From Candidatus Uhrbacteria bacterium (GTDB lineage Bacteria > Patescibacteriota > Patescibacteriia > UBA9934): a stretch of 64,000 nt of DNA. The stretch spans positions 3,512 through 67,511 of the forward strand of contig JABHCP010000001.1 of the NCBI GenBank assembly GCA_018673485.1, written 5' to 3'. A program made the translations under genes and the position numbers. The notes under the pieces were generated by a model that was not told where the DNA came from, ran no database searches, and saw only the letters and a program-made list of their open reading frames with translations. Shown piece by piece: positions 12,901 through 43,564 of this stretch (positions are counted from its first letter, which is position 1; every line of letters begins with the position of its first letter).

Positions 12901-15900
12901 ACTATTCCATCTCCACAAATGTCAGATGAACCCCAAACTGTTGATCCGTCACAAAAGGCTGCTCCATTTTGGAATCCGTCACCAGTACCACTGCCTCCAA
13001 TTAAAATCTGATAATCATCATAAATATTATTATCAATATCTGGCACCCAACTTCCCTGTTCAAACTCAAGCTCAGCGCCTATCACATATCCAGCATCTCC
13101 ATAAGTTCGATAGTGATATGTTCTTGAGTCAACCGGACAAAGGTACTGACCGGTGATTTCGTTTACACAAGTTTCAGAATCATAATCGCTATAACGACCG
13201 GTTCCGCAAAGTATGTATTGATTCAACGGGTCAGCTGCAACGCTTACTCCCAACTCATCTGCCAAAACATCATTCCATGAAGTCCAAACGCTTGATGTCA
13301 ATGAACGCACGAAACTTCCTGACTCAATTTGTGGAATCGTGCCACCCATGTAGCTCGCAATATCAGTAACGTCCCCCAAGCGATCCATGTCACGCATTAG
13401 CTTTGATTTTTCATCAGCGCACTCATAACCTACCGTGGTGCAATCTAAATCCGAAGTACAGCTATCGCCATAGTCCCCGTCTGTGCTGCGGTAACACATC
13501 GCTGTGTCATCAATATTATTTACCAATGACATATTCTCTATAAACATGTCGTAAATCTCTACCGCAGTGCTGCTTGCACCATAGTTGTACGAGACAATTA
13601 CAATATTTGGATACAACGAACCAGATACATAATTAGGCACGGCGACATAAATTGAACGTCCATCCACTACAGCTTGGAACCCATCGATAGTTGTTTCGGT
13701 TGGACTACCTGAGAACCCGTTCGCGTAATACCACGCAAGCGGACTTAGGTACGCCTCGTTCATAATAATCCTCATTCCAATGGCGTCGCCTGTTGGAATG
13801 TTGTCGTCATAAACATTAAAGAAATATTCCTTCAGAACATCATCAGTACCATGCTCTTGAGCCATCACTACTCGCAACTCAGGATAATCATCTGAAATTA
13901 GATCATCATCACCGTCGTCGCGACAATAATATGTTGAGAAGTTCATCCACGCTCGACCATGACGAGCCGATGTTGCAACACCTGCATGGTACCCATCGGC
14001 ACTGTCGCTAAATGGGAAATACTCCAGAGCTGGCCATAAGTTTTCACAAACCACTACTGACACGTCAGCAGTACCAGAGACAGTTGTCGCCTCACAAGTT
14101 CCAGAATCGCCACAGGCGTCCCCGGGTGTACACCCGGTAATGCTCGCGTCACTACTGCAATAGAACGACTCACCCGAGTCATCAACGGTCACAATGGCTG
14201 AGGTTGCGATGTTGGCCTGTCCTGTTATACCTGCCGCTGAATACGACCCTAAAGCAGGGCTTGCTAGATCAACAGTTTCGTCATCCAAAATCATTATTAT
14301 ATCTTCACCATTTGGCGCGCCATAGACATCAACACCGTCAGCGTCAGAACTCCAACTAACCCATCCCCATGCATAACTTGAAATTGGCTCAATTGATTGG
14401 GCTGCGCCTGTGTCATATGAATACGCTGTTGCTGAGAATTCATGAGACTCTCCGGACTCAGTAAACACATTTGGACTATCCGTTTCTCCATCGACAATAT
14501 CAACCTCGTCGAGCCCACAAATACTTTGATATGTTTCAAATATTTGTGAATGATCTCCATCCATTGCTACACCGTACCTTGTTAGCAATCCCTCGCGCGC
14601 TGTGTCGTCGAGCTCATCACCATAAACATAAATTGAATACTGAGCGTCGGGTGCCAGCGCTTCGTCGTAATGGAATACTACCTTGTAAACCTCATCCGCA
14701 CCCTCGCCTACGGTGCTCTGCGCAAAGCCAGTCATTGGCATAACACAGTCTCCACCATTTTGAGCTTGGACAATTGGAGCCAACATTCTACTAATCAAAC
14801 TAAAGGCTCGGCTCCACCAACCCTTTTGAATTTCATTCATTGCTATTGTTGAATGCGTACTTGGGCACAGTCCATCATCCGTCGTTGACACATCAAGGAT
14901 CAAAAATGCATTGTCATCAAATGATGATACGTCCATCTGCATATCAAACAATCCGTAAATCTCGGCATTTAAACATGCGCTTGAACCATTCGGGAAAAGA
15001 TCTGGATCAGGGCGTGCCATGCAACAACCAGTTGTAGCTGGGCCATAGCCCTCGTCACAGTCATCATCGTTTTCAGCTACACACGACAAGTAAAGCGAAG
15101 TGTAAGCTGAAAGTCCGTCATATGAAACCTCGATTGTTGACGTTGCAATATTTGTATCCATATCAACCTGCTCAGCTGCATCATCGATGATTTGAGCAAG
15201 CTGTACTGGGTCTGGATAACCATCAGGTCCAGCGCCATACGAGCTTTCCTCGCACACTGCCAACTCACCACTTCCTACAACTCCGTCTCCACAAACTGAA
15301 GGGTCGACGTAATAAATTGAAGAACCTGAGAGCAAGCAATCACTAGAGCACCACTCTTCCCCATCGCAATCCTCACCAGCGCCAGTGGAGCTGTCTTGAT
15401 CGAGCGACTCATCACCACAAGTTCCATAGCTTCCAGCTGAACCTTCACGCAAACAACTTGAAGAACACCCATCACCATCGATGGTGTTACCGTCGTCGCA
15501 TGTTTCATAAGGAGCATCTATATCCCAATCTCCGTCTCCACACTCAGCTGCAACTTGAGTAATAGGTGTTGTTCCTTCGTTTAAACATACTGAGGAACAT
15601 CCGTCACCTGAGGATGCATTTCCGTCGTCGCACTCTTCTCCACCTTGATCGTCCTCATGTGCCTCATCAAGATTTCCACAAGTTGCTCCGACTGACTGCG
15701 AGCCCTCGTTCAAACACGAACTTGAGCATCCGTCACCATTTCTCGAATTACTATCATCGCACTCCTCACCAGCATCCAAGTCTCCGTCTCCACAACATGA
15801 CGCGTCGTCTTGACCACAAGTTGAACTAGAATAAACACACTCTTCGTCAGACCCGCAAACTGTGCCAGAGATTGAGCAAGTGCCCTCCAGTGTTTCAGTG

Positions 15901-18900
15901 TCGCTGATCTCACAAACATCCTGACACTCCACGTCTGTACTACACGAGTCTCCAGTACTAGAGCATGAATACGTACAGGCGCTGGAACCAACATTTTGAC
16001 ATGTACTTGAACACGTAACATCGTCGGTGTCATCGCAGTCCTCACCAATCTCTACTATACCGTTACCACAAATTCCATAATATATTTCAGATCCTGTAGC
16101 AACGCACTCGGAAGTGCATCCAGACGGAATATTAGTTTGTCCGACATCAAATAGATCGCTTGAAATAGTCACCCACTGCGCGACATCCTCATCATCCACT
16201 ATTGGATCGGTCCACACCCACTCATATTCATAGCCATTCAATTCTTGTCCGGCAACTGAACAACTATCCGGATCTCCATAGGCAGTTACTTCGTAATACT
16301 GTGTGTCGCCAATGCTATCAAGTGTAATATTTTCTGGCTCCAAGCCTATGCGACCGACCAAACAAAGTGCATCGTCGTCCTTAGTCCCAAAAGTCCAAGA
16401 AAAATCATCGCCATAGTTTGTTCGTGACAGTGGAACTCCGCTTGTCGAGATAGCTGACCCCGAAACTATAACTCTATAATATTCTGCTTCTTTCAGCTCT
16501 GTGCCATATGTAGTGTCAGAAATTACCAGAGCAACCTCTGAACATCCAACAGATTCGATATCAGTTGAATCTCCAATAGAATCTGTATCGCTACAGCTTG
16601 CCACAGTTGTAATTTCTGAAAGAGTTGCGCAAAGCTCGTTCGCGCATGAATACAACGCTATATCACCAAGAACTGAATCATCCATTAGTGTATTGAAAGT
16701 TACGCTGATCGCACCGTTAATGCATGCGGTATCACAGTCTGGCAAGTAATCACTTACATAAGGATCCGCAAAGTTCACTATCACCTCGGCGTCTCCCTCT
16801 GTACCACTAGCCTGCTCTTCTGCAGTTAGCACCGTCGTACCCTCCGCTACCGCCACTGCTGACTGACAATACTCGTCGCTTATAGTCGCACAACTCGTCA
16901 GCCCAACATATGAACCAGTATCCAAATCCCAATCCCATGAGTAATCAACTGGATTTAGCACCTGGCACTCTTGAAGTGGAAGTGCATTAAACTCTGATTC
17001 ATCTCCCTGCTCGTCGATTGTCGCTGATATCGGACTAACCAAAACCTCGGATACATCACAATCCTCCTCACTTGCACCAGTTGTGAAAGTCCATGAATAT
17101 TCCTGGCTTAAGTTCTGTCCATCTTGGGACATTATTTGATCACTAACTTCTACTAAATACGAAGTGCTTGTCTTAAATTTTCCGCCATTATATGTTGAGT
17201 GTGCTGTCCATATAAACGATGTCTGAGTGGCGCTCGCGCTATCTTGCACTGAATCTGCCAAAACCTCTGCCGCGTCCTTATCGTCACCGCTTAGATCGCA
17301 ATCACTGTCCTCGCACTCATAAACTTTGATGTAGTCGCTCGTGATAGTGCTTGTATCCATTAATGTGCTGAAAGTTCCACGCACAACCGCATTAGTGCAC
17401 GCCTCTCGCGTGAAGCGATAGTTAGGCACGGCACTCACCAAAGTATCCGAACATTCAACTAAAAGTTCAGGCACTACCGGTATGGGTCCAGTTGAGAAAA
17501 ACCAGCTATACCCACCCAGCGACAATGTGGTGTCACTCGACTCTTCTGCTCCTATTTCAAAATTAAGCGTGTTACTTTCTTCTCCTCCGGCTGAAGTAAC
17601 ACTCAACGCTCCAGTCTGCGCTCCAGACGGAACATTTACAGTAATATCACTATCGCTCCAGTCACCAGAGACGACTGTAGCGCTCACACCGCTGAAAAAC
17701 TCAACTGAACCAATGTCAGAGCCAAGGTTCTCTCCATAAATAACCACGGTATCATCCACTTCGCCCATATCCGGATCAATTGCGCAAATTCCCGGCGTTG
17801 GGTCATCATTTGTTACTTCAAAATCCATAGCCTCGGAGTCAATATCGGCCTGGCTTGTTATATAAATATCATAGTCCCCTACCGTAAGACTGTCTCCGCC
17901 TGTAAATTCGTCAGGCACTATTACAGTTATTTCGGTGGTATCCCAAATTTGTCCCTCACACTCATCTGGAAACTCAATACTTCCTTGCGCTGTGTATCCG
18001 CTGGTCTGATCCTCAAACCAAACGGTGCCCAAAGAAGATCCAAAGCTTGTTCCGGAGATCGTTACATATTGACCGATCCCTCCACTATCAGGCTCAACTG
18101 AATAAATAGTTGGTACAATGTCATCTCCATAATCAACACCAAAGCTGATCTCGTTTGAAGTCACTCCATCAACTGTCACAGAAAGATCAACGTACTCACC
18201 GGCAGTGAGTGACGGAACAGTAATTGTGAGTGACGAATCTGACCACCTAGAGTAACTGCTCGTCGTGGTTGTATTAAAACTTACAAATGAATCATCTCGA
18301 CTGTCTCCAAAGCCTAGCCCAGAAAGTGACACTCCGTCTCCGACTTCAGCAGTATCAGGACTAACGTTACAAAGACTTGGTCGCTGCGTATCATTAACAT
18401 CAAAATCATCAATTAATGCACCCGAATCATCGTCGGTTGCGTCTGAATACCCTCGAGGTATCTCGATTGTAATTGGACCATCAGCTGCTCCGTCTGGTAC
18501 TTCAGCAATGATCTCCTCAGAGTTCCAACCGTCACCACATGATGGAATATCGGCCTCAACTGTGCCACCCGCACCATCTGCGAAGTAAACGGAACCAGTT
18601 GACCCAAAACCGGATCCAGAAATAGTTACATAAGTTCCAACCGCACCGTTTGAAGGTGAGACGCTACTTATTTCAGGATATGTTACACATGCCCCATCTT
18701 CACAGTCTCCACCCGAACAATCACTATCTTCAGAGCATGATTCACCATCGCAACTACCACAACTTCCACCGCAATCAACCCCCTCTTCGTCACCATCCAA
18801 TACTCTACTAAAACAATGAGCTGGCAGAATCCTAATTCGAACAGAATCAGAATCTTCATTTCCAGCAATATCGGTCACTGTAACTTCGAGCGTGTAACGT

Positions 18901-19928
18901 GCATCTTCCTCGGCGTCATCTGTGTACCAAGTGCTCTCGATTGTCACGTCAGACAAGTCTGCACCACTGGCTGCAACACTATCGAACCAATCGTCACCGG
19001 CATAAAAATCAGCAACTGATATTTCACTATCATCTGTTGCAGATATTTGAACAAGCGTTGAACTATCCGCTGGAATCATCTCACCACTATCTGGATATGT
19101 GACGCTTACATTGGGGTCCTCTGTATCAACTATGTCCCCTGTTGTGAAAGTCGATGTACAACTTACAGCCGAACAATCTAGAGAGGTTCCTGATGTGCTA
19201 TCAATATCGCTATCAACTACAACTGTGTATTGTGTATTTTCACCAAAACAGAATCGATCTTCATTAGGTTCCGGGCAAGGCTCCGATGGTGTAAACGTAA
19301 CTTTATTTCCAGAAATCTCTAATGTGCCATCAACCTCATCGCCAGTTTCTGTATTAGAAATAGTAAGATTGCCCTCAACGGTATCCTCTTGAACTCGCCG
19401 GCTAAAAGTAACATTCAAAACCACGTTTCGAATTGAAACCTCACCTTCTGGTGAATAACTGGCAACTGCAAAGCTCGAAGCCGATCCACCACCCATACCA
19501 CTGGACGCCCCTGAAGAACTTGAGCTTGAACTCGATCCTGAGCCACCCGAGCCGTCTGTTAAGGCCCCTAACACAAATGTGGTGATTGACCAGGACAAAA
19601 GTATTATTCCCAGGCCAATAAAGCCATTTAATAAAATCTTTTTCGCTTTATCCACTTTGTCAGGGTCGCCTTGGGCTGTCATCCAGACAAATCCTCCGTA
19701 CAGCACGATGACCACTGCAATAACGCCCAGCACCGTCAGAAAGGTTCTGATCAGCCTGGCGACTATGATTTGCAGACTCTCATCTTGCAAACCGCTAGTC
19801 TCACCTACAGTTTCAAGTTCATCAACTTGAGCGTACGCTGTGTGGATTGGTGCTAAAACACCTCCCGACACAGTAAATACGACTGCGAGTGCGCTTAATA
19901 GTAAAGTGAAACGTTTGAGTAATGACAT
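9933..19928 (-). CDS. giant (3331 aa) membrane-anchored surface protein with IPT/TIG repeats, Myxococcus-type cysteine-rich repeats, a vWA domain and TSP3 repeats
   Basis: N-terminal signal peptide plus a two-helix module (LGVIAVVIVLYGGFVWMTAQGDPDKVDKAKKILLNGFIGLGIILL). Repeated SPxxGxxGxYVTISGxxFG IPT-like units. At least 8 CGDGxxxxGEECDDGNxxxGDGCSxxC units. MIDAS motif DVEIMFVIDLSGSMS. DTDGDGIVDEDDNCPDDSNSSQTDTDGDGIGDEC. Confidence 0.85.
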   Translation of the reverse strand: MSLLKRFTLLLSALAVVFTVSGGVLAPIHTAYAQVDELETVGETSGLQDESLQIIVARLIRTFLTVLGVIAVVIVLYGGFVWMTAQGDPDKVDKAKKILLNGFIGLGIILLSWSITTFVLGALTDGSGGSGSSSSSSSSGASSGMGGGSASSFAVASYSPEGEVSIRNVVLNVTFSRRVQEDTVEGNLTISNTETGDEVDGTLEISGNKVTFTPSEPCPEPNEDRFCFGENTQYTVVVDSDIDSTSGTSLDCSAVSCTSTFTTGDIVDTEDPNVSVTYPDSGEMIPADSSTLVQISATDDSEISVADFYAGDDWFDSVAASGADLSDVTIESTWYTDDAEEDARYTLEVTVTDIAGNEDSDSVRIRILPAHCFSRVLDGDEEGVDCGGSCGSCDGESCSEDSDCSGGDCEDGACVTYPEISSVSPSNGAVGTYVTISGSGFGSTGSVYFADGAGGTVEADIPSCGDGWNSEEIIAEVPDGAADGPITIEIPRGYSDATDDDSGALIDDFDVNDTQRPSLCNVSPDTAEVGDGVSLSGLGFGDSRDDSFVSFNTTTTSSYSRWSDSSLTITVPSLTAGEYVDLSVTVDGVTSNEISFGVDYGDDIVPTIYSVEPDSGGIGQYVTISGTSFGSSLGTVWFEDQTSGYTAQGSIEFPDECEGQIWDTTEITVIVPDEFTGGDSLTVGDYDIYITSQADIDSEAMDFEVTNDDPTPGICAIDPDMGEVDDTVVIYGENLGSDIGSVEFFSGVSATVVSGDWSDSDITVNVPSGAQTGALSVTSAGGEESNTLNFEIGAEESSDTTLSLGGYSWFFSTGPIPVVPELLVECSDTLVSAVPNYRFTREACTNAVVRGTFSTLMDTSTITSDYIKVYECEDSDCDLSGDDKDAAEVLADSVQDSASATQTSFIWTAHSTYNGGKFKTSTSYLVEVSDQIMSQDGQNLSQEYSWTFTTGASEEDCDVSEVLVSPISATIDEQGDESEFNALPLQECQVLNPVDYSWDWDLDTGSYVGLTSCATISDEYCQSAVAVAEGTTVLTAEEQASGTEGDAEVIVNFADPYVSDYLPDCDTACINGAISVTFNTLMDDSVLGDIALYSCANELCATLSEITTVASCSDTDSIGDSTDIESVGCSEVALVISDTTYGTELKEAEYYRVIVSGSAISTSGVPLSRTNYGDDFSWTFGTKDDDALCLVGRIGLEPENITLDSIGDTQYYEVTAYGDPDSCSVAGQELNGYEYEWVWTDPIVDDEDVAQWVTISSDLFDVGQTNIPSGCTSECVATGSEIYYGICGNGIVEIGEDCDDTDDVTCSSTCQNVGSSACTYSCSSTGDSCSTDVECQDVCEISDTETLEGTCSISGTVCGSDEECVYSSSTCGQDDASCCGDGDLDAGEECDDSNSRNGDGCSSSCLNEGSQSVGATCGNLDEAHEDDQGGEECDDGNASSGDGCSSVCLNEGTTPITQVAAECGDGDWDIDAPYETCDDGNTIDGDGCSSSCLREGSAGSYGTCGDESLDQDSSTGAGEDCDGEEWCSSDCLLSGSSIYYVDPSVCGDGVVGSGELAVCEESSYGAGPDGYPDPVQLAQIIDDAAEQVDMDTNIATSTIEVSYDGLSAYTSLYLSCVAENDDDCDEGYGPATTGCCMARPDPDLFPNGSSACLNAEIYGLFDMQMDVSSFDDNAFLILDVSTTDDGLCPSTHSTIAMNEIQKGWWSRAFSLISRMLAPIVQAQNGGDCVMPMTGFAQSTVGEGADEVYKVVFHYDEALAPDAQYSIYVYGDELDDTAREGLLTRYGVAMDGDHSQIFETYQSICGLDEVDIVDGETDSPNVFTESGESHEFSATAYSYDTGAAQSIEPISSYAWGWVSWSSDADGVDVYGAPNGEDIIMILDDETVDLASPALGSYSAAGITGQANIATSAIVTVDDSGESFYCSSDASITGCTPGDACGDSGTCEATTVSGTADVSVVVCENLWPALEYFPFSDSADGYHAGVATSARHGRAWMNFSTYYCRDDGDDDLISDDYPELRVVMAQEHGTDDVLKEYFFNVYDDNIPTGDAIGMRIIMNEAYLSPLAWYYANGFSGSPTETTIDGFQAVVDGRSIYVAVPNYVSGSLYPNIVIVSYNYGASSTAVEIYDMFIENMSLVNNIDDTAMCYRSTDGDYGDSCTSDLDCTTVGYECADEKSKLMRDMDRLGDVTDIASYMGGTIPQIESGSFVRSLTSSVWTSWNDVLADELGVSVAADPLNQYILCGTGRYSDYDSETCVNEITGQYLCPVDSRTYHYRTYGDAGYVIGAELEFEQGSWVPDIDNNIYDDYQILIGGSGTGDGFQNGAAFCDGSTVWGSSDICGDGIVGSAETCEIGDTTSGAACDSDEDGVNDGYILNNCNSECSGYDATLECEVLSCGNGVLEAGEECDDGSLNGSYGFCGADCTNSARTYCGDGELAGGELCDCGSVAPASGAAYGAGACTYLNGVYSASASDTCAWDCSGPAPYCGDSTADDSEECDGNTETYSGKICSSGMSDNDGECEQDSDCASGTFGLSDGDDIDIEAEIEAGTAVCGDSDPDDISKDTANECPYTTVCIDGDASKTGEPCGVNSYCDSSVGGDGICSTFEYQTIRTRSCDDSVCEWGEDWADIDCIAPGSCGDGVVDDGEECDDGNDDSTDDCTIECTSNVCGDGYVYAGMENCDEGIDNGQICSATYGSTCAYCNESCVNVTTSGSFCGDGVINGSETCDGTDVLYNYYSETLYQRAGLGIGETCLASDYGLVDDEGRSCVPTGVCEGGDAGGAAWSDGSYCSPTSELCMDGISTCVAPSCDASCESTCPFTYTAQSISMQTNQIGASRSYTVDLAPYDATATSVVSGDTVTLYIPACTVSDGISISIDQSDREYPDVEIMFVIDLSGSMSSELGDSTRIEVLESAVSDAITSLHEAYDGTSANMGIGWAYIGGTHQTYTAPVDTDGDGIVDEDDNCPDDSNSSQTDTDGDGIGDECEEVEPDPVVCDCGEMAVDVADCEALCEDDDSSTDDGLGDSGTSGTDGVGEADDATVFTPGLKGTKLASMSLWDQAMSSFKPLIAWASYASSGEGKFLMLEAASSAGVYTTESDTQLSISDGLVVDGVTGTPIYESIEDAALGFSGYADNEYMIIFTDGNIYNTDYESLYFDHIDTEDTDGDDVMDTDEYMRGVSNLLDDIKDAGVEVFSAVLSSNDCQIAQMQRWSSMECTDISDTDGGGSCGVMTTEGNHDCVVPDNGTTYAYSATTANELADMYEAIVDAILNVTISLTFDGETEASTVGAGSSRSINLPSTFACDESSEQTVTLRVSLNGEGTVELSDMYLNMCTD

Positions 19929-21892: not shown

Positions 21893-24800
21893 CTATTGAG
21901 ATAACTCTGTGCGCTTCTTCATTACCTTACCTTCAAGATCAAGATCATCGGCCTCGTCAACATCATCTCCTTGCGTAAACCTCGGAAAAAACGTTGCCTC
22001 GACATCTATGATGTATTGGTTCCAATTGTCGCCATATAGTGTGTTTGCAACCTCTTCTGAGGCTATCCAGCGGATAGTGATTCCATCTGAATCTATTGCA
22101 TAGACCTTAGGGTCAGACTGGATCTTGATGAGTACGACACCTGGATTAGGAAGCATCGGATGTCCTAAAGTTATTGTTGTCAACGTTGCGTCCGTTACTG
22201 TCTTCACGTTATCGAAGTTATCTTGGTAGGTAAAGAATGTCTGTGCATCCATGAAAGGACGTCGGACCATATCACCTGTTGAGCTATCGGTGTCGAGGTA
22301 ATAAACAGTTGAGAAGTATGAACTTCGGATGTAATCCCCTATCTCAGTTACAGATATGTCCTCAACTTCTCCTGTCACTGGTGAGTAGCCTTGTTCTCCC
22401 GTGGTTGGTTCTGTGACCTCGGAAGTTGGATCTTCGTCGATCGTATTATCGGTTGAGTCTTCTGTGCCGTCATCCGCACCGTTGAGCGCACAACTCTCGG
22501 TCTCGAAGGTGGCTGTGATCTCTGCGAGGTCTGTTCCTTCGATCTTAAACTGTAGTGTAGATCCTGCAATGTCCGCTGGTATTGTCCAAGTGTAGTTCTC
22601 TGTGTTAGTTATTGGGCCTTCAATGAGAGTATATGTTATTCCTGCGTCTGTTGAGTAATATAGATTGACGAGGTTCACAGAAGAGTTTGAAGCCCATGCA
22701 AGGGCGATGTTCTCTCCAGGGTTGAAACCTTCTTCGCATGTTCCAGATGCACTTGAGGACTCTGAGATTGAATCTACTGGATTGTCGTCTGTTCCAGAGC
22801 CAATGGATGGGTCTGGAGCGGACGATGAGACTGAGACGCCTCCAGAGGATGCTGTTGTGAATGTGGCAGGGTGGGTAACGCCAGCAATAGCACCACCGAA
22901 TGCTGTGGCGGCGGCGTCTGCCGCTACTGTCATTGTGAATGTGTAATCTGTTGAACTTTCGAATTGGTCATGTGTGACAGTTAAAACGGTATTACCTACT
23001 GTCCATGCATCTACCTTACCTCCAGGATCTGCTGATAGCGTATATGCTGCAGTGCCTGTGTTAATAGCCTCCGAGAAAGTAACTACAATATCTTCTGAGG
23101 TTGAAACGTTTGTTTCAGCGTCAGCTGGAGAAAGGACTGTAATAACAGGACCGGTTCTGTCTCCATACACAACATTTGCGAAAGCTCCGATGTCAGTGTT
23201 TGTGTTTGTTCCATCTGTTATTGAAAAGTTTACCTGTGAAAGAACAGATAGAGTACCTGAACCTTCGTTGGTATCTACTACTGTTGCCGGAGTTGCAAGC
23301 GTAATCTCAAGACTGCCGACTGTTCCCTGAACAAGATCTGTTGTGGAACCTCCAAAGGCTAGGTTGTCGAAATCTCCGTCAACGTCCACGCTCAAGTCTG
23401 CGTAACGGATGACCGAGGCGGCTGTAATGTTTTCTGAAAATCTTAGATCAAGAGTATCTACTTTACCGTCCGCATCTTGGTCGGAATAGTTTATATCTGT
23501 AATACGAGGTTTCGCGCCGTCCGTTGCTGCTTTAGAACCTGAGGTTGTTGAGTTTGCTGAGGTATCATCGATCGATCCAGCGATTGTAATAGTGGGGGTA
23601 ACAGAAGTATCTCCAATACTCTTTTCTGTAAGAACTACTGTAATTTGTGAATCAGCAGTACGTGAGGCTGACGCTACGGTGTAGCTGTCAGAGGACGTGA
23701 AGTCAGCTCCGGCGATCGTTCCAGTTTCAACGTCTTCAGTCATTGTTAAAATAACGGCGTCGATGTAACCATCTGAATCTGTGTCATCTGTGGCCGCTGA
23801 TGAGATTGATGGGCCGTAGAGGTCAACAGCAGACAACGAACCGTCTCCACCGTTAGTAGCTGCGTCTGGTCCAGTTCCTCCAGCAGAAACAGTTGAAGCG
23901 ACAAGACTGGAAAGATAATTAGACGAATCCGCACCATAGGCAACGCGAATACGCCCTCCTCCACCTCCACCACCGTTTGTGGTTGTTCCAGAAGAATCAT
24001 GTCCGTCACCTCCAATGGCTGTAATGGCTCCACTCGTACCAGAAAAAGCACCAGCTGTTACGATTTTAATGGACCCTCCAGAACCACCACCAGTTGACTC
24101 AGTCGAATCTCCATTACCAGCAGATCCATTAGCCGTTAAAGAACCACTTACAACTATGTCACCAACTGAATCAAGAATAATTAACCCACCACCACTAGCT
24201 CCAGCTTTATTAGCTGTTCCACCAGATGAAGAACCAAAAAGTATAGGATCTGTAGAAGAACCATAACTAGCTCCGTAATCGTTTGCTAAGTTTCCTCCTG
24301 CTCCATCTCCACCTGTGCCACCGTGTCCGGCACCCTGAGTGGAAAGAATTGAGTTTGCATAACCATGACCATAACCAGATCCAACCTGACTTTGACTACA
24401 GACGTTTGATCCGCTTGGTCCAAAACCATTTCCGTTACCAACCCCTGTACATCCTTTTCCATTTGCATTGATAGCCGATGTACCATCGATTGATAACGAA
24501 GCCAAGTTTTGCCAATCAACACTTCCATTGATCGTTGAGCCTGTCATGGTAACAGCGGCAGCCTCATTCAAAGTCATCGTGATTGCGGCAGGCAAGCTAA
24601 TCGTAGCCGAGCTAAACCCAACTGTTCCAGTTGATGAAAGATCGAAGTTTGTTATCGCTTCCGTGGAGCAGTCCAATACATTTATGAATGTAATATTGGT
24701 TGCAGTAAGCGATGGCGTTGCATCTATTGATGCATCACAATACATAGACACTACAGATGAATCTGTCGTCCATGTTGTTGCAGAATAATCTCCAGTAAAG

Positions 24801-25924
24801 CTGAATCCATGATACGTAGTTACCGCATTCGTTCCTGTATTTTTTGTGTAGACCGTACCGGTACCTCCCTCATCTGCATCGTCAGGTCCAGCACCTCCCG
24901 CTACAGCAAAAACACCTGATCCATAACTTGTAAAACTGTTTACACCATAGGTTAATGCAATACGTCCCCCACCACCTCCTCCACCGTCATATCCAGCACC
25001 ATCATACCCATCACCACCATCTGCAGATAATGCTCCTGTGCTTCCGGAAAGCGCTCCTGTTACAGCGATATCAACCGATCCACCGCCACCTCCTCCAACA
25101 CCTTGATTGCTGGCTCCAGGCCCATTAGCTCCATTCGCAGAGACTGAGCCATTAAAGGTAAAACCTCCGCCTATTACTAATTTAACTAAACCGCCTCCAT
25201 CACCTCCTGTGGTACTTGTGAAACCTCCAGAAGAAGAACCAAACAAAACAGGTACTGTAGAACTACCATAAGTAGATCCATTAGCATTTAGTTCATATGA
25301 TGGCCCCAGCGCAGCATCTCCATCCCCACCAGCACCTCCGTGACCAGCACCACTACCTGAACGTAGGCTAACTCCAGCCGCACCTCCACCATACCCTGCG
25401 GTATCAACTGTGCAGACATTAAATTCATTTGGCCCAAATCCATTACTACCTGAAGCTCCCTGACACCCCTTCTCATCCACATTAATCCCATTTCCTGCGT
25501 AAATTGTAAAATTACCAGATGTAGATATTAGCACTCCCTGCATATCAAACCCTGCGGTTGGATCGTTATCCCAACCCGCTCCAGCGTGAGTTAGGAATGC
25601 ATAGTCTGATCCATCTGCCAGACCATTACCAATCGTTACAGATGCTACATTTATTTCTTTATCTAAAAGACAATATCCGTCATTATTTCCATTCAAGAAA
25701 GTGACATCATCTGACGTTGTCCATGAACCCTCATCGAGCTCGGAACCACCTGGGGCGTCTGTTGGCACAACCGGAGAAGCTGCCGTACCATCACAGTATG
25801 CAGTTATGGTTGCGGCTTGTGCCTCCGGAACATTCACCATAAAGGTGAATGGAACTAAAACCATTGCAATGATGGAAGTATTGCAAATTAATAAGGCAAG
25901 TGATCTTGTCTTCATATTTTTCAT
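21893..25924 (-). CDS. large (~1343 aa) secreted glycine-rich repeat protein
   Basis: Signal peptide MKNMKTRSLALLICNTSIIAMVLVPFTFMVNVPEAQA. Two tandem ~200 aa Gly-rich repeats (GAGHGGxGGDG...GGGGGGGRIxxxYG). S/T-rich region. Big-like domain VTFSEAINTG. An upstream in-frame ATG at 25978 is also possible. Confidence 0.8.
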   Translation of the reverse strand: MKNMKTRSLALLICNTSIIAMVLVPFTFMVNVPEAQAATITAYCDGTAASPVVPTDAPGGSELDEGSWTTSDDVTFLNGNNDGYCLLDKEINVASVTIGNGLADGSDYAFLTHAGAGWDNDPTAGFDMQGVLISTSGNFTIYAGNGINVDEKGCQGASGSNGFGPNEFNVCTVDTAGYGGGAAGVSLRSGSGAGHGGAGGDGDAALGPSYELNANGSTYGSSTVPVLFGSSSGGFTSTTGGDGGGLVKLVIGGGFTFNGSVSANGANGPGASNQGVGGGGGGSVDIAVTGALSGSTGALSADGGDGYDGAGYDGGGGGGGRIALTYGVNSFTSYGSGVFAVAGGAGPDDADEGGTGTVYTKNTGTNAVTTYHGFSFTGDYSATTWTTDSSVVSMYCDASIDATPSLTATNITFINVLDCSTEAITNFDLSSTGTVGFSSATISLPAAITMTLNEAAAVTMTGSTINGSVDWQNLASLSIDGTSAINANGKGCTGVGNGNGFGPSGSNVCSQSQVGSGYGHGYANSILSTQGAGHGGTGGDGAGGNLANDYGASYGSSTDPILFGSSSGGTANKAGASGGGLIILDSVGDIVVSGSLTANGSAGNGDSTESTGGGSGGSIKIVTAGAFSGTSGAITAIGGDGHDSSGTTTNGGGGGGGRIRVAYGADSSNYLSSLVASTVSAGGTGPDAATNGGDGSLSAVDLYGPSISSAATDDTDSDGYIDAVILTMTEDVETGTIAGADFTSSDSYTVASASRTADSQITVVLTEKSIGDTSVTPTITIAGSIDDTSANSTTSGSKAATDGAKPRITDINYSDQDADGKVDTLDLRFSENITAASVIRYADLSVDVDGDFDNLAFGGSTTDLVQGTVGSLEITLATPATVVDTNEGSGTLSVLSQVNFSITDGTNTNTDIGAFANVVYGDRTGPVITVLSPADAETNVSTSEDIVVTFSEAINTGTAAYTLSADPGGKVDAWTVGNTVLTVTHDQFESSTDYTFTMTVAADAAATAFGGAIAGVTHPATFTTASSGGVSVSSSAPDPSIGSGTDDNPVDSISESSSASGTCEEGFNPGENIALAWASNSSVNLVNLYYSTDAGITYTLIEGPITNTENYTWTIPADIAGSTLQFKIEGTDLAEITATFETESCALNGADDGTEDSTDNTIDEDPTSEVTEPTTGEQGYSPVTGEVEDISVTEIGDYIRSSYFSTVYYLDTDSSTGDMVRRPFMDAQTFFTYQDNFDNVKTVTDATLTTITLGHPMLPNPGVVLIKIQSDPKVYAIDSDGITIRWIASEEVANTLYGDNWNQYIIDVEATFFPRFTQGDDVDEADDLDLEGKVMKKRTELSQ

Positions 25925-26007
25925 GTTTAAATTGTTGGCTATATTATAGCACCGCGGAGTGCTAAAAAAAACAAACATGGGGATAGAAAAAACCCCGCAT
26001 CACACCA

Positions 26008-26075
26008 CCATCCCGAGCACAGCAAGGGATCTTCTAATTAAGAAGATTTCTCCCCCGTCAGACGGGGTTCGAAAT
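26008..26075. repeat. degenerate copy of the aaRS 3'UTR-type hairpin repeat
   Basis: Shares the ATCCCGAGC, GGGATCT and CCCCGTCAGACGGGG hairpin motifs with 29190..29296 and 51745..51852. Confidence 0.4.
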
Positions 26076-26625: not shown

Positions 26626-26764
26626 TTAGTTAGAAGTATACAGTAGGCGGTTATCAGTGGCTAGGCAGTGCGGGTTTAAATTGTTTAATCGCTCGGCTCC
26701 GCCATCACTTGTTTAAAATGTTTATTTCGAAGTAAACACTTTAAACAATTTAAACATCTTAAAC

Positions 26765-26795: not shown

Positions 26796-27053
26796 TTATC
26801 GTTTTCGGTATCCACCGCGTTTGCGGTCGTCTTCATTGATCTGACCAGTTTTGATCATCCAAGCTCGCTTATCTCCGATCTTCATACCGCGCAATGCGCT
26901 GTCCTTTCGCTTGTTTTTTGTCTTATCTTTCGCGTGATATCTCTTTCCTGCAACTGTTAACTTTTTACCAGATTGCATAAATCGACGTGAAAATCGACGA
27001 TACATCGCCTCAAAACTTTCTCCTTTTTTTCGTTTGATAAATATATCTGACAT
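26796..27053 (-). CDS. rpsU: 30S ribosomal protein S21
   Basis: 85 aa, highly basic, with the S21-like RRFxRxxxxSG and KRKxK pattern. Confidence 0.65.
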   Translation of the reverse strand: MSDIFIKRKKGESFEAMYRRFSRRFMQSGKKLTVAGKRYHAKDKTKNKRKDSALRGMKIGDKRAWMIKTGQINEDDRKRGGYRKR

Positions 27054-27214
27054 GTGCTTTCACCTTCCTTTCTCTGTTTGATAAGAATTACGCACGAATA
27101 GTAGCTTATTGATGCATAAATGTCAACAGTAAGGGTTTGAGTTGTTGAAGGTGTTTAAGGTGTTTATTTTGAAGTAAACATTTTAAACATTTAAACACTT
27201 TAAACCTTCCCCAT

Positions 27215-27252
27215 AAAAGCAAAAGTCCCACCCGAGGATCGCCAAGGGTGAG
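27215..27252 (-). terminator. terminator of GC-island gene A
   Basis: CACCCttggcgatcctcGGGTG stem followed by GACTTTTGCTTTT on the minus transcript; paralogous to the hairpin at 28093. Confidence 0.5.
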
Positions 27253-27274
27253 AATCGAATTGTCTACGTTGGAC

Positions 27275-28003
27275 CTAACTGCCCCAAATCGCCCTGCGCA
27301 CAGCTTCTTGCAAGGTCTTACCCTCACCATCATGTTGCCTAGACACAAGAGCTGTATCACCACCACCGTCGAGCTTCATCATGAAGGAAAACGAGTAGGT
27401 CCCATCGTCCAAGCACGACGCGATAGCGGTACGCTCAGCGAACTGCCTCCACAGGTTGGAGGGGAGCGCGCCGAGCAAACGCTGATCCTTCAAGATCGGG
27501 AAAAACCAATCCCCCATTTGGATATGCGTTGCACACAGTGGCCCAGCGGGAACGCCAGCGGTCTTGAGCTTGAATTGACAACCAGGCTGCAAGAACTCTC
27601 CCAGAGAAACGGGCTGAGCCAGCGGCACACGCACCCACGCCCGACTGGTATTGGGAACAAAGATGGCCAGGAATTTCTCAGGACCCGGGAAGGTGTTTGG
27701 CCAGATCATTGCCTGGACTACACCGTCAGGACACTGCTCGATGATCTCGATCGCATCGATGACAATTTCGTAGGACTCAAACTTGATCCAGGAGCCACCA
27801 GCGCCCAAGCCGACCATACACGTGACCGTAATGGAGACCTGAGAGCCATCAATGGACACGAGCTCTATCTCATAGATCTTGTTGCGATCCATACGAGCGT
27901 GCCCCTCATCGTCCACATCGCAGACCTGGACCTGATACACGACCTTGCGCTGAAACTGTGAAAGGAAACTGAACATCGTACAGGCTGATTCGATCTTAGT
28001 CAT
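27275..28003 (-). CDS. hypothetical protein, GC-rich islet paralogue A
   Basis: GC above 60% in a ~40% GC genome. RBS GGAGGTG lies 6 nt upstream of the ATG at 28003. Weak similarity to the adjacent gene (KIYEIELVSIDG versus TIYRRVDLVDLGG). The track ORF extends to 28063. Confidence 0.55.
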   Translation of the reverse strand: MTKIESACTMFSFLSQFQRKVVYQVQVCDVDDEGHARMDRNKIYEIELVSIDGSQVSITVTCMVGLGAGGSWIKFESYEIVIDAIEIIEQCPDGVVQAMIWPNTFPGPEKFLAIFVPNTSRAWVRVPLAQPVSLGEFLQPGCQFKLKTAGVPAGPLCATHIQMGDWFFPILKDQRLLGALPSNLWRQFAERTAIASCLDDGTYSFSFMMKLDGGGDTALVSRQHDGEGKTLQEAVRRAIWGS

Positions 28004-28092
28004 TAGCACCTCCAGGCAACTTGACCAGATGAGTTCTCCTAAACGGAGAAAGCACCTTAACAAACAATCGACTTTGCGTCAATCTTAGCCCT

Positions 28093-28129
28093 AAAAGCAA
28101 AAGTCCCCACCCGGCGATCCCGGGTGGAG
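28093..28129 (-). terminator. terminator of GC-island gene B
   Basis: CACCCGGcgatcCCGGGTG stem followed by GGACTTTTGCTTTT. Confidence 0.6.
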
Positions 28130-28167
28130 TTAGACGCTGACCTTGCGGTCTAGATTGTGAGCTCGAG

Positions 28168-29022
28168 CTACTCGTCGGCCTGCTCGAAGAGATGTCGGTA
28201 CTGCTCGACCCGAAAGAGGATGTCGGGAACGGTCAGATGAGCCCGGAGACGCTGCATGATAGTGACAGCCATGGGATCTCCACAGAGATACCCAGCGACA
28301 TCGATAGGTATGAAAATGATGTCTCGTGCGCCCTGAACGCCAGGAAGTCCCTCCTCGACATCGAACGAAAGCCGGAACTTGAAGCCACCTTCGCCAGTGC
28401 CGTCGAGGTGGTCCCAGTCCACGTTCGCGACCAAGGAGCCAACTCCCTCGCCGATACGAACGTTCGCAGCTACGAAACCACGGTTCATGCACATGCCAGT
28501 GGTGCCGGGAAGCTCGAAGATCACAGGAATCGGACAATTGTCTTCACCGCCGCCAGCGCACTGGGCCAACTCGGCCTGAGCTGCCGTCACGGCGCTATCT
28601 TCCCGACTCATCTCCGGACGCCAGTACGTACCACCGGCGACCAGCTCCATATATCCACCCATGGCAACCTGACGACGCCTCAGCAAGCCCACGTAGATCT
28701 CGCCGCTCGGGGACTTGGTGTAGAGAAGTAGCGCTGGGCCACCACCACCGGGCTCCCGATAAAGGATACCTGCGTAGCCACCCAGATCGACCAGGTCGAC
28801 GCGTCGGTAGATCGTCTTCTCAGGACTGACGAGCACGAAGCAGGCACGCCCCACGCTCCCATCCGGGTAACGCTTGACGTGAACCTCCCAGTCGCACATC
28901 CCCGACGGGATGTCAGCCATCAGATCGAGCTGCCAGGCGGGAAGCCCTGCCACGAACGGATCAGGGTGCTGCCAAAGCTCCAACTCGCTCACACCATCAG
29001 TCTGCGTAGTGTCATTGCACAT
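28168..29022 (-). CDS. hypothetical protein, GC-rich islet paralogue B
   Basis: 284 aa, about 65% GC, RBS GGAGAAAGG; unknown family. Confidence 0.55.
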   Translation of the reverse strand: MCNDTTQTDGVSELELWQHPDPFVAGLPAWQLDLMADIPSGMCDWEVHVKRYPDGSVGRACFVLVSPEKTIYRRVDLVDLGGYAGILYREPGGGGPALLLYTKSPSGEIYVGLLRRRQVAMGGYMELVAGGTYWRPEMSREDSAVTAAQAELAQCAGGGEDNCPIPVIFELPGTTGMCMNRGFVAANVRIGEGVGSLVANVDWDHLDGTGEGGFKFRLSFDVEEGLPGVQGARDIIFIPIDVAGYLCGDPMAVTIMQRLRAHLTVPDILFRVEQYRHLFEQADE

Positions 29023-29034
29023 ACCTTTCTCCGA

Positions 29035-29063
29035 TGTTCACTACGGTGAACACAGTGCTGTTC
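29035..29063. promoter_or_regulatory. operator-like overlapping palindromes upstream of GC-islet gene B
   Basis: TGTTCACtacgGTGAACAcagtgcTGTTCA: three alternating TGTTCA/TGAACA half-sites between the putative promoter and the RBS. Confidence 0.4.
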
Positions 29064-29189
29064 ATTTGATAGACCATGCTCCCTTATGGAAGTACCAGCT
29101 TTCTACCAAATATTAGCCACTTTGTCAACCCAAAAACCCGCCGTTTCCGACGGGTTTTTAAATTATTGTACTTCTATCCCCTCTTCGAC

Positions 29190-29296
29190 CGACATCTGGG
29201 TTCTGAATTATTGAGATCCCTCGGCTTCGACCCGTCTGACGGGTCTTCGCTCGGGATGACGGCTTCTGGAGTGCTGTTATCCGCTGCCGTCACTTA
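29190..29296 (-). repeat. conserved structured 3'UTR element abutting the hisS stop codon
   Basis: On the RNA sense strand it begins at the UGA stop: UGACGGCAGCG..GCCGUCAUCCCGAGCGAAGACCCGUCAGACGGGUCGAAG..GAGGGAUCU. It is homologous to the element after aspS. Confidence 0.6.
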
Positions 29297-30612
29297 CCTC
29301 CCAATTGCTTCTGAACAAGATCAACGACTTTGTCCATGTTCACAATCTCTTGTCCGCCGGATTCCATATCGCGAATGATAATTGTGCCGTCGAGAACTTC
29401 TTTTTGTCCAAGAATGAGTGCTATCTTTGATTTTCGTTTATCTGCCATCTCGAGCTGAGTTTTCAGTGAGCCCTTTCCAAAAGCCTCGGCGATCTTTACG
29501 CCTGCTGTACGGAACTCCTCAAACACTACCAACCCTTTACGCCGAGCAGCGTCGCCCAACTGACAGAAGAACACATCAATCTCTCGATCCTTTGGCAAGA
29601 CAACACCCTGGTTTTTCATTGCTCGGATAATTCGCTCAACGCCCATGGCAAGCCCTATCGCGTGAGTATCCTCACGTCCACCAAGCTGTTCAATCAATGT
29701 GTCATATCGTCCACCGCCACCTAGAGCGTTCTGAGACTTCACGCCTTCATCGTCAACCTGCACGATCTCAAATACTGTGCGTGTGTAGTAGTCCAAACCT
29801 CGTACCAAAAACGGATCAAGTTCATATGGCACTTCAGCTTCGTCAAGATATTCAATCACTGTCATGAAGTGCTGCTTTGAGTCTTCATCAAGCCAGTCTA
29901 AAATCTGTGGAGCGTCAGCTTTAAGCTCGGCCATTCCCTCTTCTTTTGAATCAAGTAAACGCAATGGATTTTTTGTAAGACGTTTCTTATCAACGTCAGA
30001 CAACTTTTTGCGAAACTGCTTAAAGTAACTTACCAACTCCATAATATACTCACGACGAGAATCCTCTGTTCCGATTGAGTTGATTAGGAACTTTGACTTC
30101 ACTCCCAAGCCTTGCAACATGCGGTGCGCCATAATAATCATCTGCGCGTCCAAGATAGGGTCAGCTGACCCAATTGCCTCCAATCCAAATTGATGAAATT
30201 GACGATATCGACCAGCCTGCGGTCGGTCGTGTCTAAACATCTGACCAAAGTACCACATCTTTACTGGCTGTGGCTTATTAAGCATTCCGTGCTCAATATA
30301 CGCACGCGCAACTGAAGCTGTAGCCTCAGGTCGCATTGTAACTCTAGCCTCACTCGGATCCTTGAACGTATACATTTCTTTTTCAACAATGTCTGTCGCT
30401 TTTCCAACCGATCGTTCAAACAAAGTTGTTGGCTCCAAAATCGGCAAACGAATTCTGCCAAAACTATAATCAGTCGCAACATTGCGCGCTGCGTCCTCAA
30501 CAGCGTTCCAATACGCCTCGTGCTCAGGTACAACATCCTTAAACCCACGCAAACTTTGTGGAGTCTTAATCTTTTTCTTTACCACCTCCTCTTTATCGCT
30601 CTGTGCATTCAT
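29290..30612 (-). CDS. hisS: histidine--tRNA ligase
   Basis: Class II motifs, GGGGRYDTLIEQLGG, 440 aa. Confidence 0.95.
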   Translation of the reverse strand: MNAQSDKEEVVKKKIKTPQSLRGFKDVVPEHEAYWNAVEDAARNVATDYSFGRIRLPILEPTTLFERSVGKATDIVEKEMYTFKDPSEARVTMRPEATASVARAYIEHGMLNKPQPVKMWYFGQMFRHDRPQAGRYRQFHQFGLEAIGSADPILDAQMIIMAHRMLQGLGVKSKFLINSIGTEDSRREYIMELVSYFKQFRKKLSDVDKKRLTKNPLRLLDSKEEGMAELKADAPQILDWLDEDSKQHFMTVIEYLDEAEVPYELDPFLVRGLDYYTRTVFEIVQVDDEGVKSQNALGGGGRYDTLIEQLGGREDTHAIGLAMGVERIIRAMKNQGVVLPKDREIDVFFCQLGDAARRKGLVVFEEFRTAGVKIAEAFGKGSLKTQLEMADKRKSKIALILGQKEVLDGTIIIRDMESGGQEIVNMDKVVDLVQKQLGGK

Positions 30613-30613
30613 A

Positions 30614-31222
30614 CTAATAGGTTAAATCATAATCAGGTGCAGAAATAACACCCGCTTTACTAAATGGTAATCCACGAACCCAGACTCGTCCCACAATATT
30701 ATCCTGTGGAATTGGTCCGATCGCCCTTGAGTCTAAACTCATATCGCGATTGTCTCCCATAACAAAGTACTCACTATCACTTAAAACAACATATTCCTCT
30801 CCGTGTGTAAACTCATCTATATACTCTTCATCAATTGCAACTCCATTTGGAAACTCACTATTGTAAACACTGATTGTTCCATCCTTAATCTCCACAGTCT
30901 CGCCCGGTAAACCAATTACGCGCTTGATGTAATACTGATCAACTCCCGTTGGTGGCTCAAATACAATGATCTCTCCTCTACTGATATCACGGAATCGATA
31001 AGAAAGCTCATCAATGATCAGGTATTCATTCTCCTGAAAATTCGGCTCCATTGAAGCACCCTTCACTATGAAAGGCTGAATCAAAAAGTAACGAATCGGA
31101 ATAATAATTGCCGCAGCGATTATTACGACTTGCAAAACCTCCAGAACAAATACTACAACGCCGCCAAGCGTTGCACCAAAGACCTGAAAGATAGCTGAGT
31201 CTTTTTTCTCCTTAAAAGACAT
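30614..31222 (-). CDS. lepB: signal peptidase I
   Basis: N-terminal transmembrane helix; KGASMEP Ser box; GDNRDMSLDSR box E. Confidence 0.9.
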   Translation of the reverse strand: MSFKEKKDSAIFQVFGATLGGVVVFVLEVLQVVIIAAAIIIPIRYFLIQPFIVKGASMEPNFQENEYLIIDELSYRFRDISRGEIIVFEPPTGVDQYYIKRVIGLPGETVEIKDGTISVYNSEFPNGVAIDEEYIDEFTHGEEYVVLSDSEYFVMGDNRDMSLDSRAIGPIPQDNIVGRVWVRGLPFSKAGVISAPDYDLTY

Positions 31223-31371
31223 GTAAATCGTTTAAAATTGGCTTAAATCCTGCTTAGGATAGCACGTTTTTTAAGTGTACGCAAGAATCATTATAACAGC
31301 TTTTGACTAAAGTTGGATCTCTAAACTTGCCAATTCCCAATTCCCCCACAATCTGCTAGAATGACATCGCT

Positions 31372-39476: not shown

Positions 39477-39556
39477 CCACCCCTATCCCCTCCTTAAAAA
39501 GTAGGGGGACCAAGATCTCGACCCTCCCCCTTTTTAAGGGGGAGCTGGAGGGGGTT
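39475..39556. repeat. palindromic MITE-like repeat (CCCCCT/AGGGGG family)
   Basis: aaccacccctatcccctccttaaaaagtagggggaccaagatctcgaccctccccctttttaagggggagctggagggggtt. Confidence 0.7.
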
Positions 39557-39629
39557 AAATCTTACGTCATTTGACATACTCCCTTATTTACTGCATTATT
39601 GCTACGTAAATACTACATTTTAGCCAACT

Positions 39630-43479: not shown

Positions 43480-43530
43480 GGCAACCCCCTGTCGTCCCCC
43501 TTGGGAAGGGGGGACACGAGAGTCTCGACT
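43480..43530. repeat. truncated copy of the CCCCCT/AGGGGG palindromic repeat
   Basis: ggcaaccccctgtcgtcccccttgggaaggggggacacgagagtctcgac. Confidence 0.6.
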
Positions 43531-43564
43531 GGGTTCTGGCATCTGTAGTCTGTATTCTGAACAT

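Follow-up and report, generated by a model that had tools for sequence, protein, structure and literature searches.

In Nudix enzymes the glutamate residues of the Nudix box hold the catalytic metals, and NrtR regulators are non-catalytic Nudix proteins that serve as ligand sensors. In human TRPM2 (PMC4974056, PMC6461439), the NUDT9-H domain is a Nudix domain whose hydrolysis has been lost through mutations in the Nudix box, and ADP-ribose activates the channel via this domain. The DNA analyzed here, a 64-kb stretch (the window, to which all unqualified coordinates refer) from a genome of Candidatus Uhrbacteria in the Candidate Phyla Radiation (CPR), encodes a protein that may have followed a similar course. 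Its gene, gene 2, lies with a second gene, gene 1, in a small islet rich in guanine and cytosine (GC) at 27215–29075, between hisS and rpsU. By analogy with TRPM2 NUDT9-H and NrtR, the Nudix fold of the gene 2 protein would have been kept while the box was mutated and the function shifted from hydrolysis to binding. However, no channel or winged-helix domain is fused to gene 2, and the likeness is one of principle rather than of family.

As a locus, the islet resembles the flexible genomic islets of streamlined genomes in that it occupies a fixed site between conserved genes, has variable cargo and no mobility genes, and differs by its presence between strains with 98% identical flanks. Unlike those islets, it is very small (1–3 kb, one to two genes) and combines one recurrent anchor gene, duplicated terminator repeats and a persistently GC-rich cargo. 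It also recalls integron cassettes and clusters of attC sites lacking integron-integrases (CALIN), as a series of units of open reading frame (ORF) plus hairpin with variable content, but it has no IntI, attI, attC-length sites (57–141 nt) or core motifs, and its hairpins (21–25 nt), unlike attC, look like ordinary intrinsic terminators. Inspection by eye, with no attC model run, showed no GTTRRRY core at the islet junctions. A search of the literature on Uhrbacteria or CPR bacteria for Nudix proteins or variable islands found nothing relevant.

We consider it rather probable that this is an old, strain-variable accessory islet at a fixed hisS-rpsU hotspot of one Uhrbacteria clade, composed of an anchor gene for a Nudix protein with a degenerate box and a swappable slot. 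The islet is built of separate units, each with its own promoter-like site, Shine-Dalgarno (SD) sequence, ORF and hairpin terminator.

The hisS-rpsU junction and its duplicated joint

The ancestral gene order at this site is lepB-hisS-rpsU-yqeY, and the site is empty, with a hisS-rpsU gap of 110–340 nt, in genome contexts L006 (UBA12070), L008–L010 and L012. In six other Uhrbacteria lineages (HisS 73–89% identical), a Nudix-like gene lies between hisS and rpsU, and these homologues are 28–41% identical to gene 2 at the protein level. The Nudix-like gene is accompanied by an unrelated ORF of 121 amino acids (aa) in L005 (with Nudix-like protein P0003), by a 232-aa acidic ORF that precedes P0004 in L015 (on a 709-kb contig), by a 63-aa ORF in L022/L023 (P0018), and by a 694-aa surface-type gene on the opposite strand in L044 (P0021); L007 and L031 likewise have the Nudix-like gene at the site. 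The content of the second slot is different in each genome, and these contents are mutually unrelated. One family member, P0015, is found elsewhere in another CPR genome. An earlier, sequence-only reading of the window had named core homologues widespread in related low-GC genomes as an observation that would speak against a foreign origin; homologues are indeed present in many relatives, but as accessory rather than core genes.

Presence of the islet varies even between close relatives. Where L031 and L006/L028 have flanks that are 97.7–98.8% identical, the interval between hisS and rpsU measures 1032 nt in L031 vs. 117 nt in the latter. The 1032-nt tract comprises a promoter, a 251-aa Nudix-like gene, a hairpin and its own rpsU promoter, and its boundaries fall in the 3' end of hisS and the leader of rpsU. 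This pattern reads as allele replacement by homologous recombination, not as a clean insertion.

In the window, the minus-strand order is hisS terminator, promoter-like site, a leader of about 75 nt with a triple half-site, SD sequence, gene 2 and terminator copy T2, followed by TTGACG-17-TAAGGT, SD sequence, gene 1, terminator copy T1, a GTTTAAA-repeat element and the rpsU promoter. Both islet genes have the orientation of the conserved flanks, hisS upstream (29290–30612, minus strand) and rpsU downstream (26796–27053, minus strand, with its own promoter at 27098–27126). The upstream border module is the bidirectional hairpin terminator of hisS (AAAAACCCG..CGGGTTTTT, 29132–29159), which abuts the candidate promoter of gene 2 (29100–29128, minus strand), where a −35 hexamer TTGACA (29123–29128) and a −10 hexamer TAGAAA (29100–29105) are separated by a 17-nt spacer. 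L005 has the same hexamers and spacing at this position and L015 has TTGACG-17-TAAGGT, and the sequence GGCGGGTTTTTGGGTTGAC, which contains the terminator and the −35 element upstream of the Nudix-like gene, is invariant in the window, L005 and L015.

Gene 2 (28168–29022, minus strand) has 284 aa, as had been stated; gene 1 (27275–28003, minus strand) has 242 aa from the ATG at 28003 and not 243. Gene 2 is followed by T2 (CCACCCGGGATCGCCGGGTGG then GACTTTTGCTTTT, 28093–28129, minus strand), and gene 1 by T1 (27215–27253, minus strand), in which the 3' arm and the U-tract are the same as in T2 and the 5' arm is degraded. The likeness spans about 50 nt. The window has the string AAAAGCAAAAGTCCC(C)ACCCG at 27215 and 28093 only, with no occurrence expected, and the hairpin itself has no further copy, so the claim that each gene is followed by a near-identical terminator is borne out. 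The T2 hairpin has 10 pairs, 8 of them GC, followed by ACUUUUGCUU (−24.5 kcal/mol, z = −3.0), and the T1 hairpin is weaker (−15.4 kcal/mol, z = −1.1); with a GC-rich hairpin and a U-tract on the coding strand, both are predicted to be intrinsic (Rho-independent) terminators.

What has been duplicated is the joint between this terminator and a −35 element. A CCCACCC..GGGTGGG hairpin stands 3' of the Nudix-like gene in the window, L005, L015 and L031. L015 has the single-copy state, in which the hairpin and GACTTTTGCTTTT lead directly into the rpsU promoter. In the window and L005, the hairpin-to-−35 joint is doubled and flanks a second gene that is unlike between both genomes. The putative promoter of gene 1 (28054–28082, minus strand; TTGACG at 28077–28082, 17-nt spacer, TAAGGT at 28054–28059) would be the counterpart of the rpsU −35 joint that L015 has in its ancestral form. 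The sequence-only reading had proposed a duplicated gene-plus-terminator cassette with two paralogous genes, but only the terminator-to-(−35) joint is doubled and the genes are unrelated (BLASTP E = 0.82; hhalign of gene 1 against the gene 2 family, probability 0.2%). Gene 1 would thus fill a variable slot that was created by duplication of the joint and is flanked by hairpin repeats, and these repeats, together with the conserved hisS and rpsU flanks, might serve as homologous stretches through which the cargo is gained, lost or replaced when related strains recombine, with no integrase or transposase involved in the exchange.

Gene 2 and its degenerate Nudix box

When both proteins were scanned directly against Pfam, NCBIfam, PADLOC and PHROGs and searched with phmmer against the PDB, nothing usable was obtained, a word-indexed search of 5.8 billion clusters returned the two proteins themselves only, and in public records both are listed as "hypothetical protein [Candidatus Uhrbacteria bacterium]". 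For the direct family and structure searches, the earlier statement that neither protein has a recognizable family therefore holds. It fails for gene 2 in a full phmmer scan of 1.84 billion representatives, which found 30 relatives. The closest is P0003 (42% identical, E = 6e-58), the others being about 30% identical (E from 1e-11 to 1e-3), and the word-indexed search repeated with the family alignment gave at least seven matches.

The family alignment has a clean Nudix box, GGFxxPGExHxxxxxRExxEExG, in the relatives; 18 of the 29 aligned members match PF00293, and the family profile matches solved Nudix proteins and ADP-sugar pyrophosphatases (PDB chains, E down to 1e-5). With a hidden Markov model (HMM) built from intact-box members only, gene 2 aligns at E = 5e-29. 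Conserved features of the family are a beta-rich extension at the N-terminus and a helix at the C-terminus; a C-terminal tail of about 20 aa is common to gene 2 and P0003 only. Gene 2 falls in a subfamily specific to CPR bacteria, whose extra inserts comprise the IYR and GN.Y segments. Gene 2 is thus assigned, indirectly and by homology through the family profile, to the Nudix superfamily (PF00293), and within it to proteins of the ADP-sugar or nucleotide-sugar pyrophosphatase type.

Unlike the superfamily norm, gene 2 misses the Pfam model and has A-E-L-A-Q-C at the position of R-E-x-x-E-E. In the alignment to the intact-box HMM, it reads A150-E151-L-A-Q154-C155 there and D142 at the glutamate of GX5E; MAFFT places the box in a slightly different register, in which no more than one of the four key residues survives. 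The signature GX5EX7REUXEEXGU with its metal-binding glutamates is therefore absent from gene 2, and P0003 has E-A-A-R-D-E in the same HMM alignment. Members of the CPR subfamily differ in the state of the box, which is intact in P0018, P0021, P0031, L007 and L031, partly lost in P0004, P0009, P0015 and P0026, and nearly gone in the window protein and P0003. In L007, the Nudix-like gene is split by a frameshift in a run of eight G (GGCGAGGGGGGGGATC, at about 7700–7720), and when one G is removed, an ORF of 250 aa whose RELREE box is intact is regained. This tract is either phase-variable or misassembled.

Since the metal-holding glutamates of the box are lost, canonical hydrolysis has probably been lost in the gene 2 protein as well. 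The intact-box relatives are found in glycosyltransferase/nucleotide-sugar clusters (L018, L019, L042) or near a ManC gene (L040), and the family members in L018 and L019 lie on the strand opposite to all neighbors. Because of this association with nucleotide-sugar and glycan clusters, the ancestral activity is suggested to be that of a nucleotide-sugar or ADP-sugar pyrophosphatase. Gene 2, the anchor unit, descends from a rare family of Nudix hydrolases whose intact-box members in other bacteria mostly belong to such clusters. In the window lineage it has evolved very fast, and of the metal-binding motif RExxEE it has lost the arginine and the two glutamates of the EE pair. Because the box is lost while the ORF has remained full length and the expression signals are conserved, we infer that the protein is most likely still Nudix-folded and binds a nucleoside-diphosphate-X ligand without the usual hydrolysis.

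Composition, expression signals and surroundings

The islet has 56.4% GC, compared with 44.0% in the remaining window, and is the most GC-rich interval of its size (+4.2 standard deviations, with the runner-up at 50%); gene 2 has 60.1% and gene 1 54.5%. The GC-rich islet noted in the sequence-only reading is therefore real, but the value of about 65% given there is too high, as the maxima in 300-nt windows are 0.61–0.62 and 0.65 is never reached. The GC content at third codon positions (GC3) is 0.65–0.68 in the islet genes vs. 0.36–0.44 in the neighbors, and third-position A is 0.06–0.07 vs. 0.25 in hisS. Atypical composition and patchy presence among close relatives are features by which genomic islands are recognized, and the islet has both. 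Integrase or transposase genes, a tRNA target and terminal direct repeats as insertion scars were not found in its neighborhood, which consists entirely of core genes, and the repeats at the islet are the internal terminator copies only. The islet junctions are identical in four independent metagenome assemblies (99.97–100% identity), which rules out an assembly chimera, and the metagenome copies of the islet are all identical to each other.

Both islet genes have strong SD sequences, GGAGAAAGG for gene 2 (29024–29032, minus strand) and GGAGGTG for gene 1 (28007–28013, minus strand). A strong SD sequence precedes only 3 of the 47 long ORFs of the window, so the earlier remark that those of the islet contrast with the rest of the window stands; rpsU is also SD-led. 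By contrast, an extended −10 motif TGnTAnnnT ending 6–10 nt before the ATG is found at 11 of 48 genes, vs. 0.7 expected, for example at the ORFs starting at 1968, 2979, 6473, 47105, 51296 and 59859 (minus strand) and at 31372, 34352 and 36568 (plus strand). TGnTAnnnT so close to the ATG appears to mark leaderless mRNAs, and the genome appears largely leaderless. In its outline, as a compositionally foreign islet with two separately signaled genes, a duplicated terminator and an atypical SD-led initiation, the locus had thus been described correctly.

The three half-sites TGTTCAC-N4-GTGAACA-N6-TGTTCA (29035–29064), in the predicted 5' leader of gene 2, form two overlapping perfect palindromes and had been read as the operator of a dimeric repressor. 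The triple half-site is present, with a chance of about 0.005 in the 268-nt spacer, although the same palindrome test is passed by about seven separate sites of the window (12 hits, counting overlaps). The operator reading found no further support: no related sites above chance were found elsewhere in the window, the triple half-site was not found in the orthologous leaders of L005 and L015, and family scans of both islet proteins detected no helix-turn-helix protein. An operator role is possible, with the palindrome as its support. A riboswitch or attenuator based on alternative leader hairpins is rejected, as the gene 2 leader does not fold more stably than shuffled sequence (z = −0.76).

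Gene 1 is an ORFan in the variable second slot, delimited by its expression signals and by gene callers, and its predicted protein has 205 aa in the NCBI annotation and 242 aa in those of JGI and ENA. A scan of the islet against Rfam gave no family at the gathering score; the sub-threshold matches (mir-3613, BsrG, HrrF, rnk leader) were discarded because they match AT-rich repeats by chance. In an analysis of trimer depletion, the usual avoidance of TAG, TAA and TTA was all that was seen, with no toxin-site avoidance.

Other repeats and hairpins occur around the islet. The hisS stop codon is separated from its terminator by 130 nt (29160–29290) with a long hairpin, CCCGAGCGAAGACCCGTCAGACGGGTCGAAGCCGAGGG, whose core, CCCGTCAGACGGG, recurs at 26054–26066, downstream of yqeY. 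The AT-rich motif GTTTAAANNGTTTAAA has 15 matches in the window, vs. 0.86 expected, and all copies are upstream of genes: on both sides of rpsU (26674–26764 and 27135–27206), where they form 55-nt palindromic elements with a GTTTAYTTYGAAGTAAAC core, and at 53274–53306, 31221–31236 and 56995–57010. The same position in L005 and L015 lacks this repeat, which may be a site for a native regulator, an UP-like element or a small miniature inverted-repeat transposable element. In turn, a segment containing ..GGAGAAATCGAGGCTTTTGCGAAACGTAC.. in the rpsU leader is common to L015 (8900–9075) and L022 (5754–5945) and missing from the window; gene callers read small ORFs of 41 and 63 aa in it, and it may be an rpsU leader element. 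An intergenic family of CCCCC-TTnnAA-GGGGG hairpins, often preceded by CTCGAC, is found at 39517–39560, 43496–43540, 50520–50560 and 55445–55490. Just downstream of yqeY, two Gly/Ser/Thr-rich giant surface-type proteins of 1361 and 3331 aa (21893–25978 and 9933–19928, minus strand) have Big_5 and T4SS-pilin Pfam matches in public gene calls.

Age of the islet, alternative explanations and the GC content of the family

Core proteins are 73–92% identical among the compared genomes. Between the window and L015, HisS is 86% and the Nudix-like protein 28% identical; between the window and L005, RpsU is 87%, YqeY 81% and the Nudix-like protein 41% identical; and between L007 and L022, the values are 89% for HisS and about 70% for the Nudix-like protein. 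The Nudix-like protein of L044, the outgroup in HisS, is 42–46% identical to those of the L007 group and 28% to the window protein. These similarities can be reconciled with the HisS tree by assuming that the branch of the window, L005 and L015 was accelerated, and this is the branch on which the Nudix box has decayed; tree congruence thus favors vertical descent with acceleration. Between the genomes, the fourfold degenerate sites of hisS and yqeY are close to saturation (identity 0.30–0.46, random about 0.27), and those of the Nudix-like gene in L031, L007 and L022 are equally diverged (0.34–0.46). Because the gene is at the same site in six lineages, the modules are conserved and the flanking fourfold sites are near saturation, the islet is likely old and predates the splits of these lineages.

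Several observations weigh against an old islet with a non-catalytic Nudix anchor and a coding second slot. Searched directly against Pfam, gene 2 has no NUDIX match at E ≤ 1, and its predicted Nudix fold comes from homology only, since single-sequence AlphaFold2 gave a predicted local distance difference test score (pLDDT) of 37.6 for gene 2 (38–39 for both models), too low for a fold search. The loss of catalysis is read from the alignment alone, and some Nudix-fold enzymes use variant boxes. The L015 Nudix-like protein is nearer to the L007 group than to the window protein, and the persistent GC-richness of the family, described below, does not follow from an old islet. For gene 1, no relatives besides itself were found in viral contigs, phage records, plasmid records or the word-indexed search, and its 237-aa antisense ORF is equally gene-like in GC by codon position, which fails to separate the two. 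With no homologue and a gene-like antisense ORF, the minus-strand call of gene 1 is therefore based on its SD sequence, promoter-like site, terminator orientation and three independent gene callers, and its translation is predicted from these.

Alternatively, the islet might be a conflict module for phage defense, counter-defense or host interaction, in which the degenerate Nudix protein binds or sequesters a nucleotide-derived signal and gene 1 provides a partner. The very fast evolution of the gene 2 protein relative to its flanks, the strain-level variation in presence, the ORFan partner genes that vary between genomes, and the loss of catalytic residues in an ORF that is still full length would all be expected of such a module. 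However, the PADLOC and PHROGs scans had no match, no cyclase, TIR, SIR2 or nuclease partner is present, and, with a second gene that is not conserved, the islet is no fixed two-gene system; in addition, the intact-box relatives are associated with glycan synthesis and not with defense islands. We therefore regard a conflict module as unlikely, although a role in conflict or surface variation would also be in keeping with the fast evolution, the strain-level presence/absence and the ORFan partners.

Slightly less likely is a mobile, hairpin-bounded cassette similar to those of integrons or CALIN, which would have inserted repeatedly and site-specifically at hisS-rpsU from a GC-rich pool, so that each lineage acquired its allele independently. 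The absence of integrase or transposase genes nearby and the form of the hairpins, which are 21–25 nt long with U-tracts and lack attC R'/R'' cores, argue against it, as do the lack of the hairpin motif in L022 and L025, the sorting of the promoter/terminator framework into two types that follow the host clades, and the difference between L031 and L006, which is a replaced tract and not a clean insertion. Still, such a cassette would account for the conserved CCCACCC..GGGTGGG hairpin after each ORF, of which both copies are identical in L005, for cassettes that differ between genomes, and for a family that is GC-rich whatever its host and lies opposite to its neighbors in sugar clusters.

It is also improbable that gene 2 is a functionless, decaying remnant of a Nudix enzyme and gene 1 a spurious ORF opened by high GC. 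The box is degenerate and unlike even between the two closest homologues, the L007 copy is frameshifted, the islet is lost in some strains, and gene 1 has no homologue and an equally gene-like antisense ORF, all of which decay would explain. Yet the window and L005 proteins (284 and 280 aa, 41% identity) align end to end over 277 columns with no stops, promoter, SD sequence and terminator are conserved, and a 242-codon ORF at 54% GC with a correctly spaced SD sequence and a terminator is unlikely under neutrality.

The least probable explanation is the one first proposed, in which a high-GC donor, perhaps the organism on which an episymbiont lives, recently passed on by horizontal transfer a gene-plus-terminator cassette that has not yet ameliorated: the atypical GC3, A-poor third positions like those of high-GC genomes, the atypical translation signals, a count of third-position changes in the direction of amelioration (below) and GC3 values from 0.95 (L044) to 0.57 (L022), readable as stages of decay, are what it would predict, but six other lineages have the gene at the same site, the nearest (L005, L015) share its regulatory modules, synonymous sites are near saturation as described, and no donor lineage or near-identical copy was found among 15 billion proteins, where the best match outside the clade is about 30% identical and the closest such relatives are on metagenomic contigs of 30–57% GC, so that the recent part of this proposal is largely refuted and the databases searched hold no high-GC host donor.

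For the preferred explanation, an old, strain-variable islet, the composition of the anchor gene has to be considered separately. In 11 of 12 contexts, the Nudix-like family has a higher GC content than the genome that hosts it. Host and gene have, respectively, 30 and 62% GC in L040, 37 and 56% in L022, 42 and 60% in L015, 44 and 60% in the window, 46 and 61% in L018, 51.5 and 69.5% in L044, 53 and 63% in L021, and 57 and 62.5% in L019; L005, L007, L031 and L025 show the same contrast, and L042 is the exception (52 and 53%). The contrast in L040 is the most extreme seen for the family. There, P0037 (6001–6651 of a 1.05-Mb contig, ERZ1757541), which matches Pfam NUDIX, has 62% GC and a GC3 of 0.76 in a stretch of 30% GC. 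The Nudix-like gene at the hisS-rpsU site of L044 (5001–5732) has a GC3 of 0.95, with 0.01 A and 0.04 T in the third position, and the composition of the neighboring 694-aa islet gene matches the host. In L015, the 232-aa islet gene has a GC3 of 0.31. Since other islet cassettes are thus not always GC-rich, it is the gene rather than the locus to which the effect is tied.

Among L031, L007 and L022, third-position changes number 76 from GC to AT vs. 27 from AT to GC, a count that hints at GC decay and is unreliable, given its bias by saturation and parsimony (controls give 1.0–1.65 toward the rarer base). Either divergent alleles have kept arriving from an unsampled GC-rich pool, or GC is maintained in the Nudix-like gene. 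The family keeps its high GC (53–70%, GC3 0.5–0.95, A-poor third positions) in hosts of 30–57% GC, even where it has apparently co-diverged with its neighboring genes past synonymous saturation, and it may be, though this is less likely than not, that a gene-specific force maintains it, with the window lineage carrying a fast-evolving, non-catalytic Nudix protein at a strain-variable CPR hotspot. Selection on the nucleic-acid composition of the Nudix-like gene could be such a force, as could targeted conversion or mutation.

A protein that is labeled hypothetical in every public record can now be assigned to a family and has probably lost catalysis. The SD-led islet genes, in a genome that appears largely leaderless, offer a natural probe of translation initiation in these organisms. 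The hisS-rpsU hotspot, with its recurrent anchor and swappable slot, provides a repeatable example of how strains vary in tiny, integrase-free CPR genomes. Finally, if it is not the result of repeated recent transfer, the GC content of the Nudix-like family would challenge the view of GC islands as fresh imports that ameliorate.

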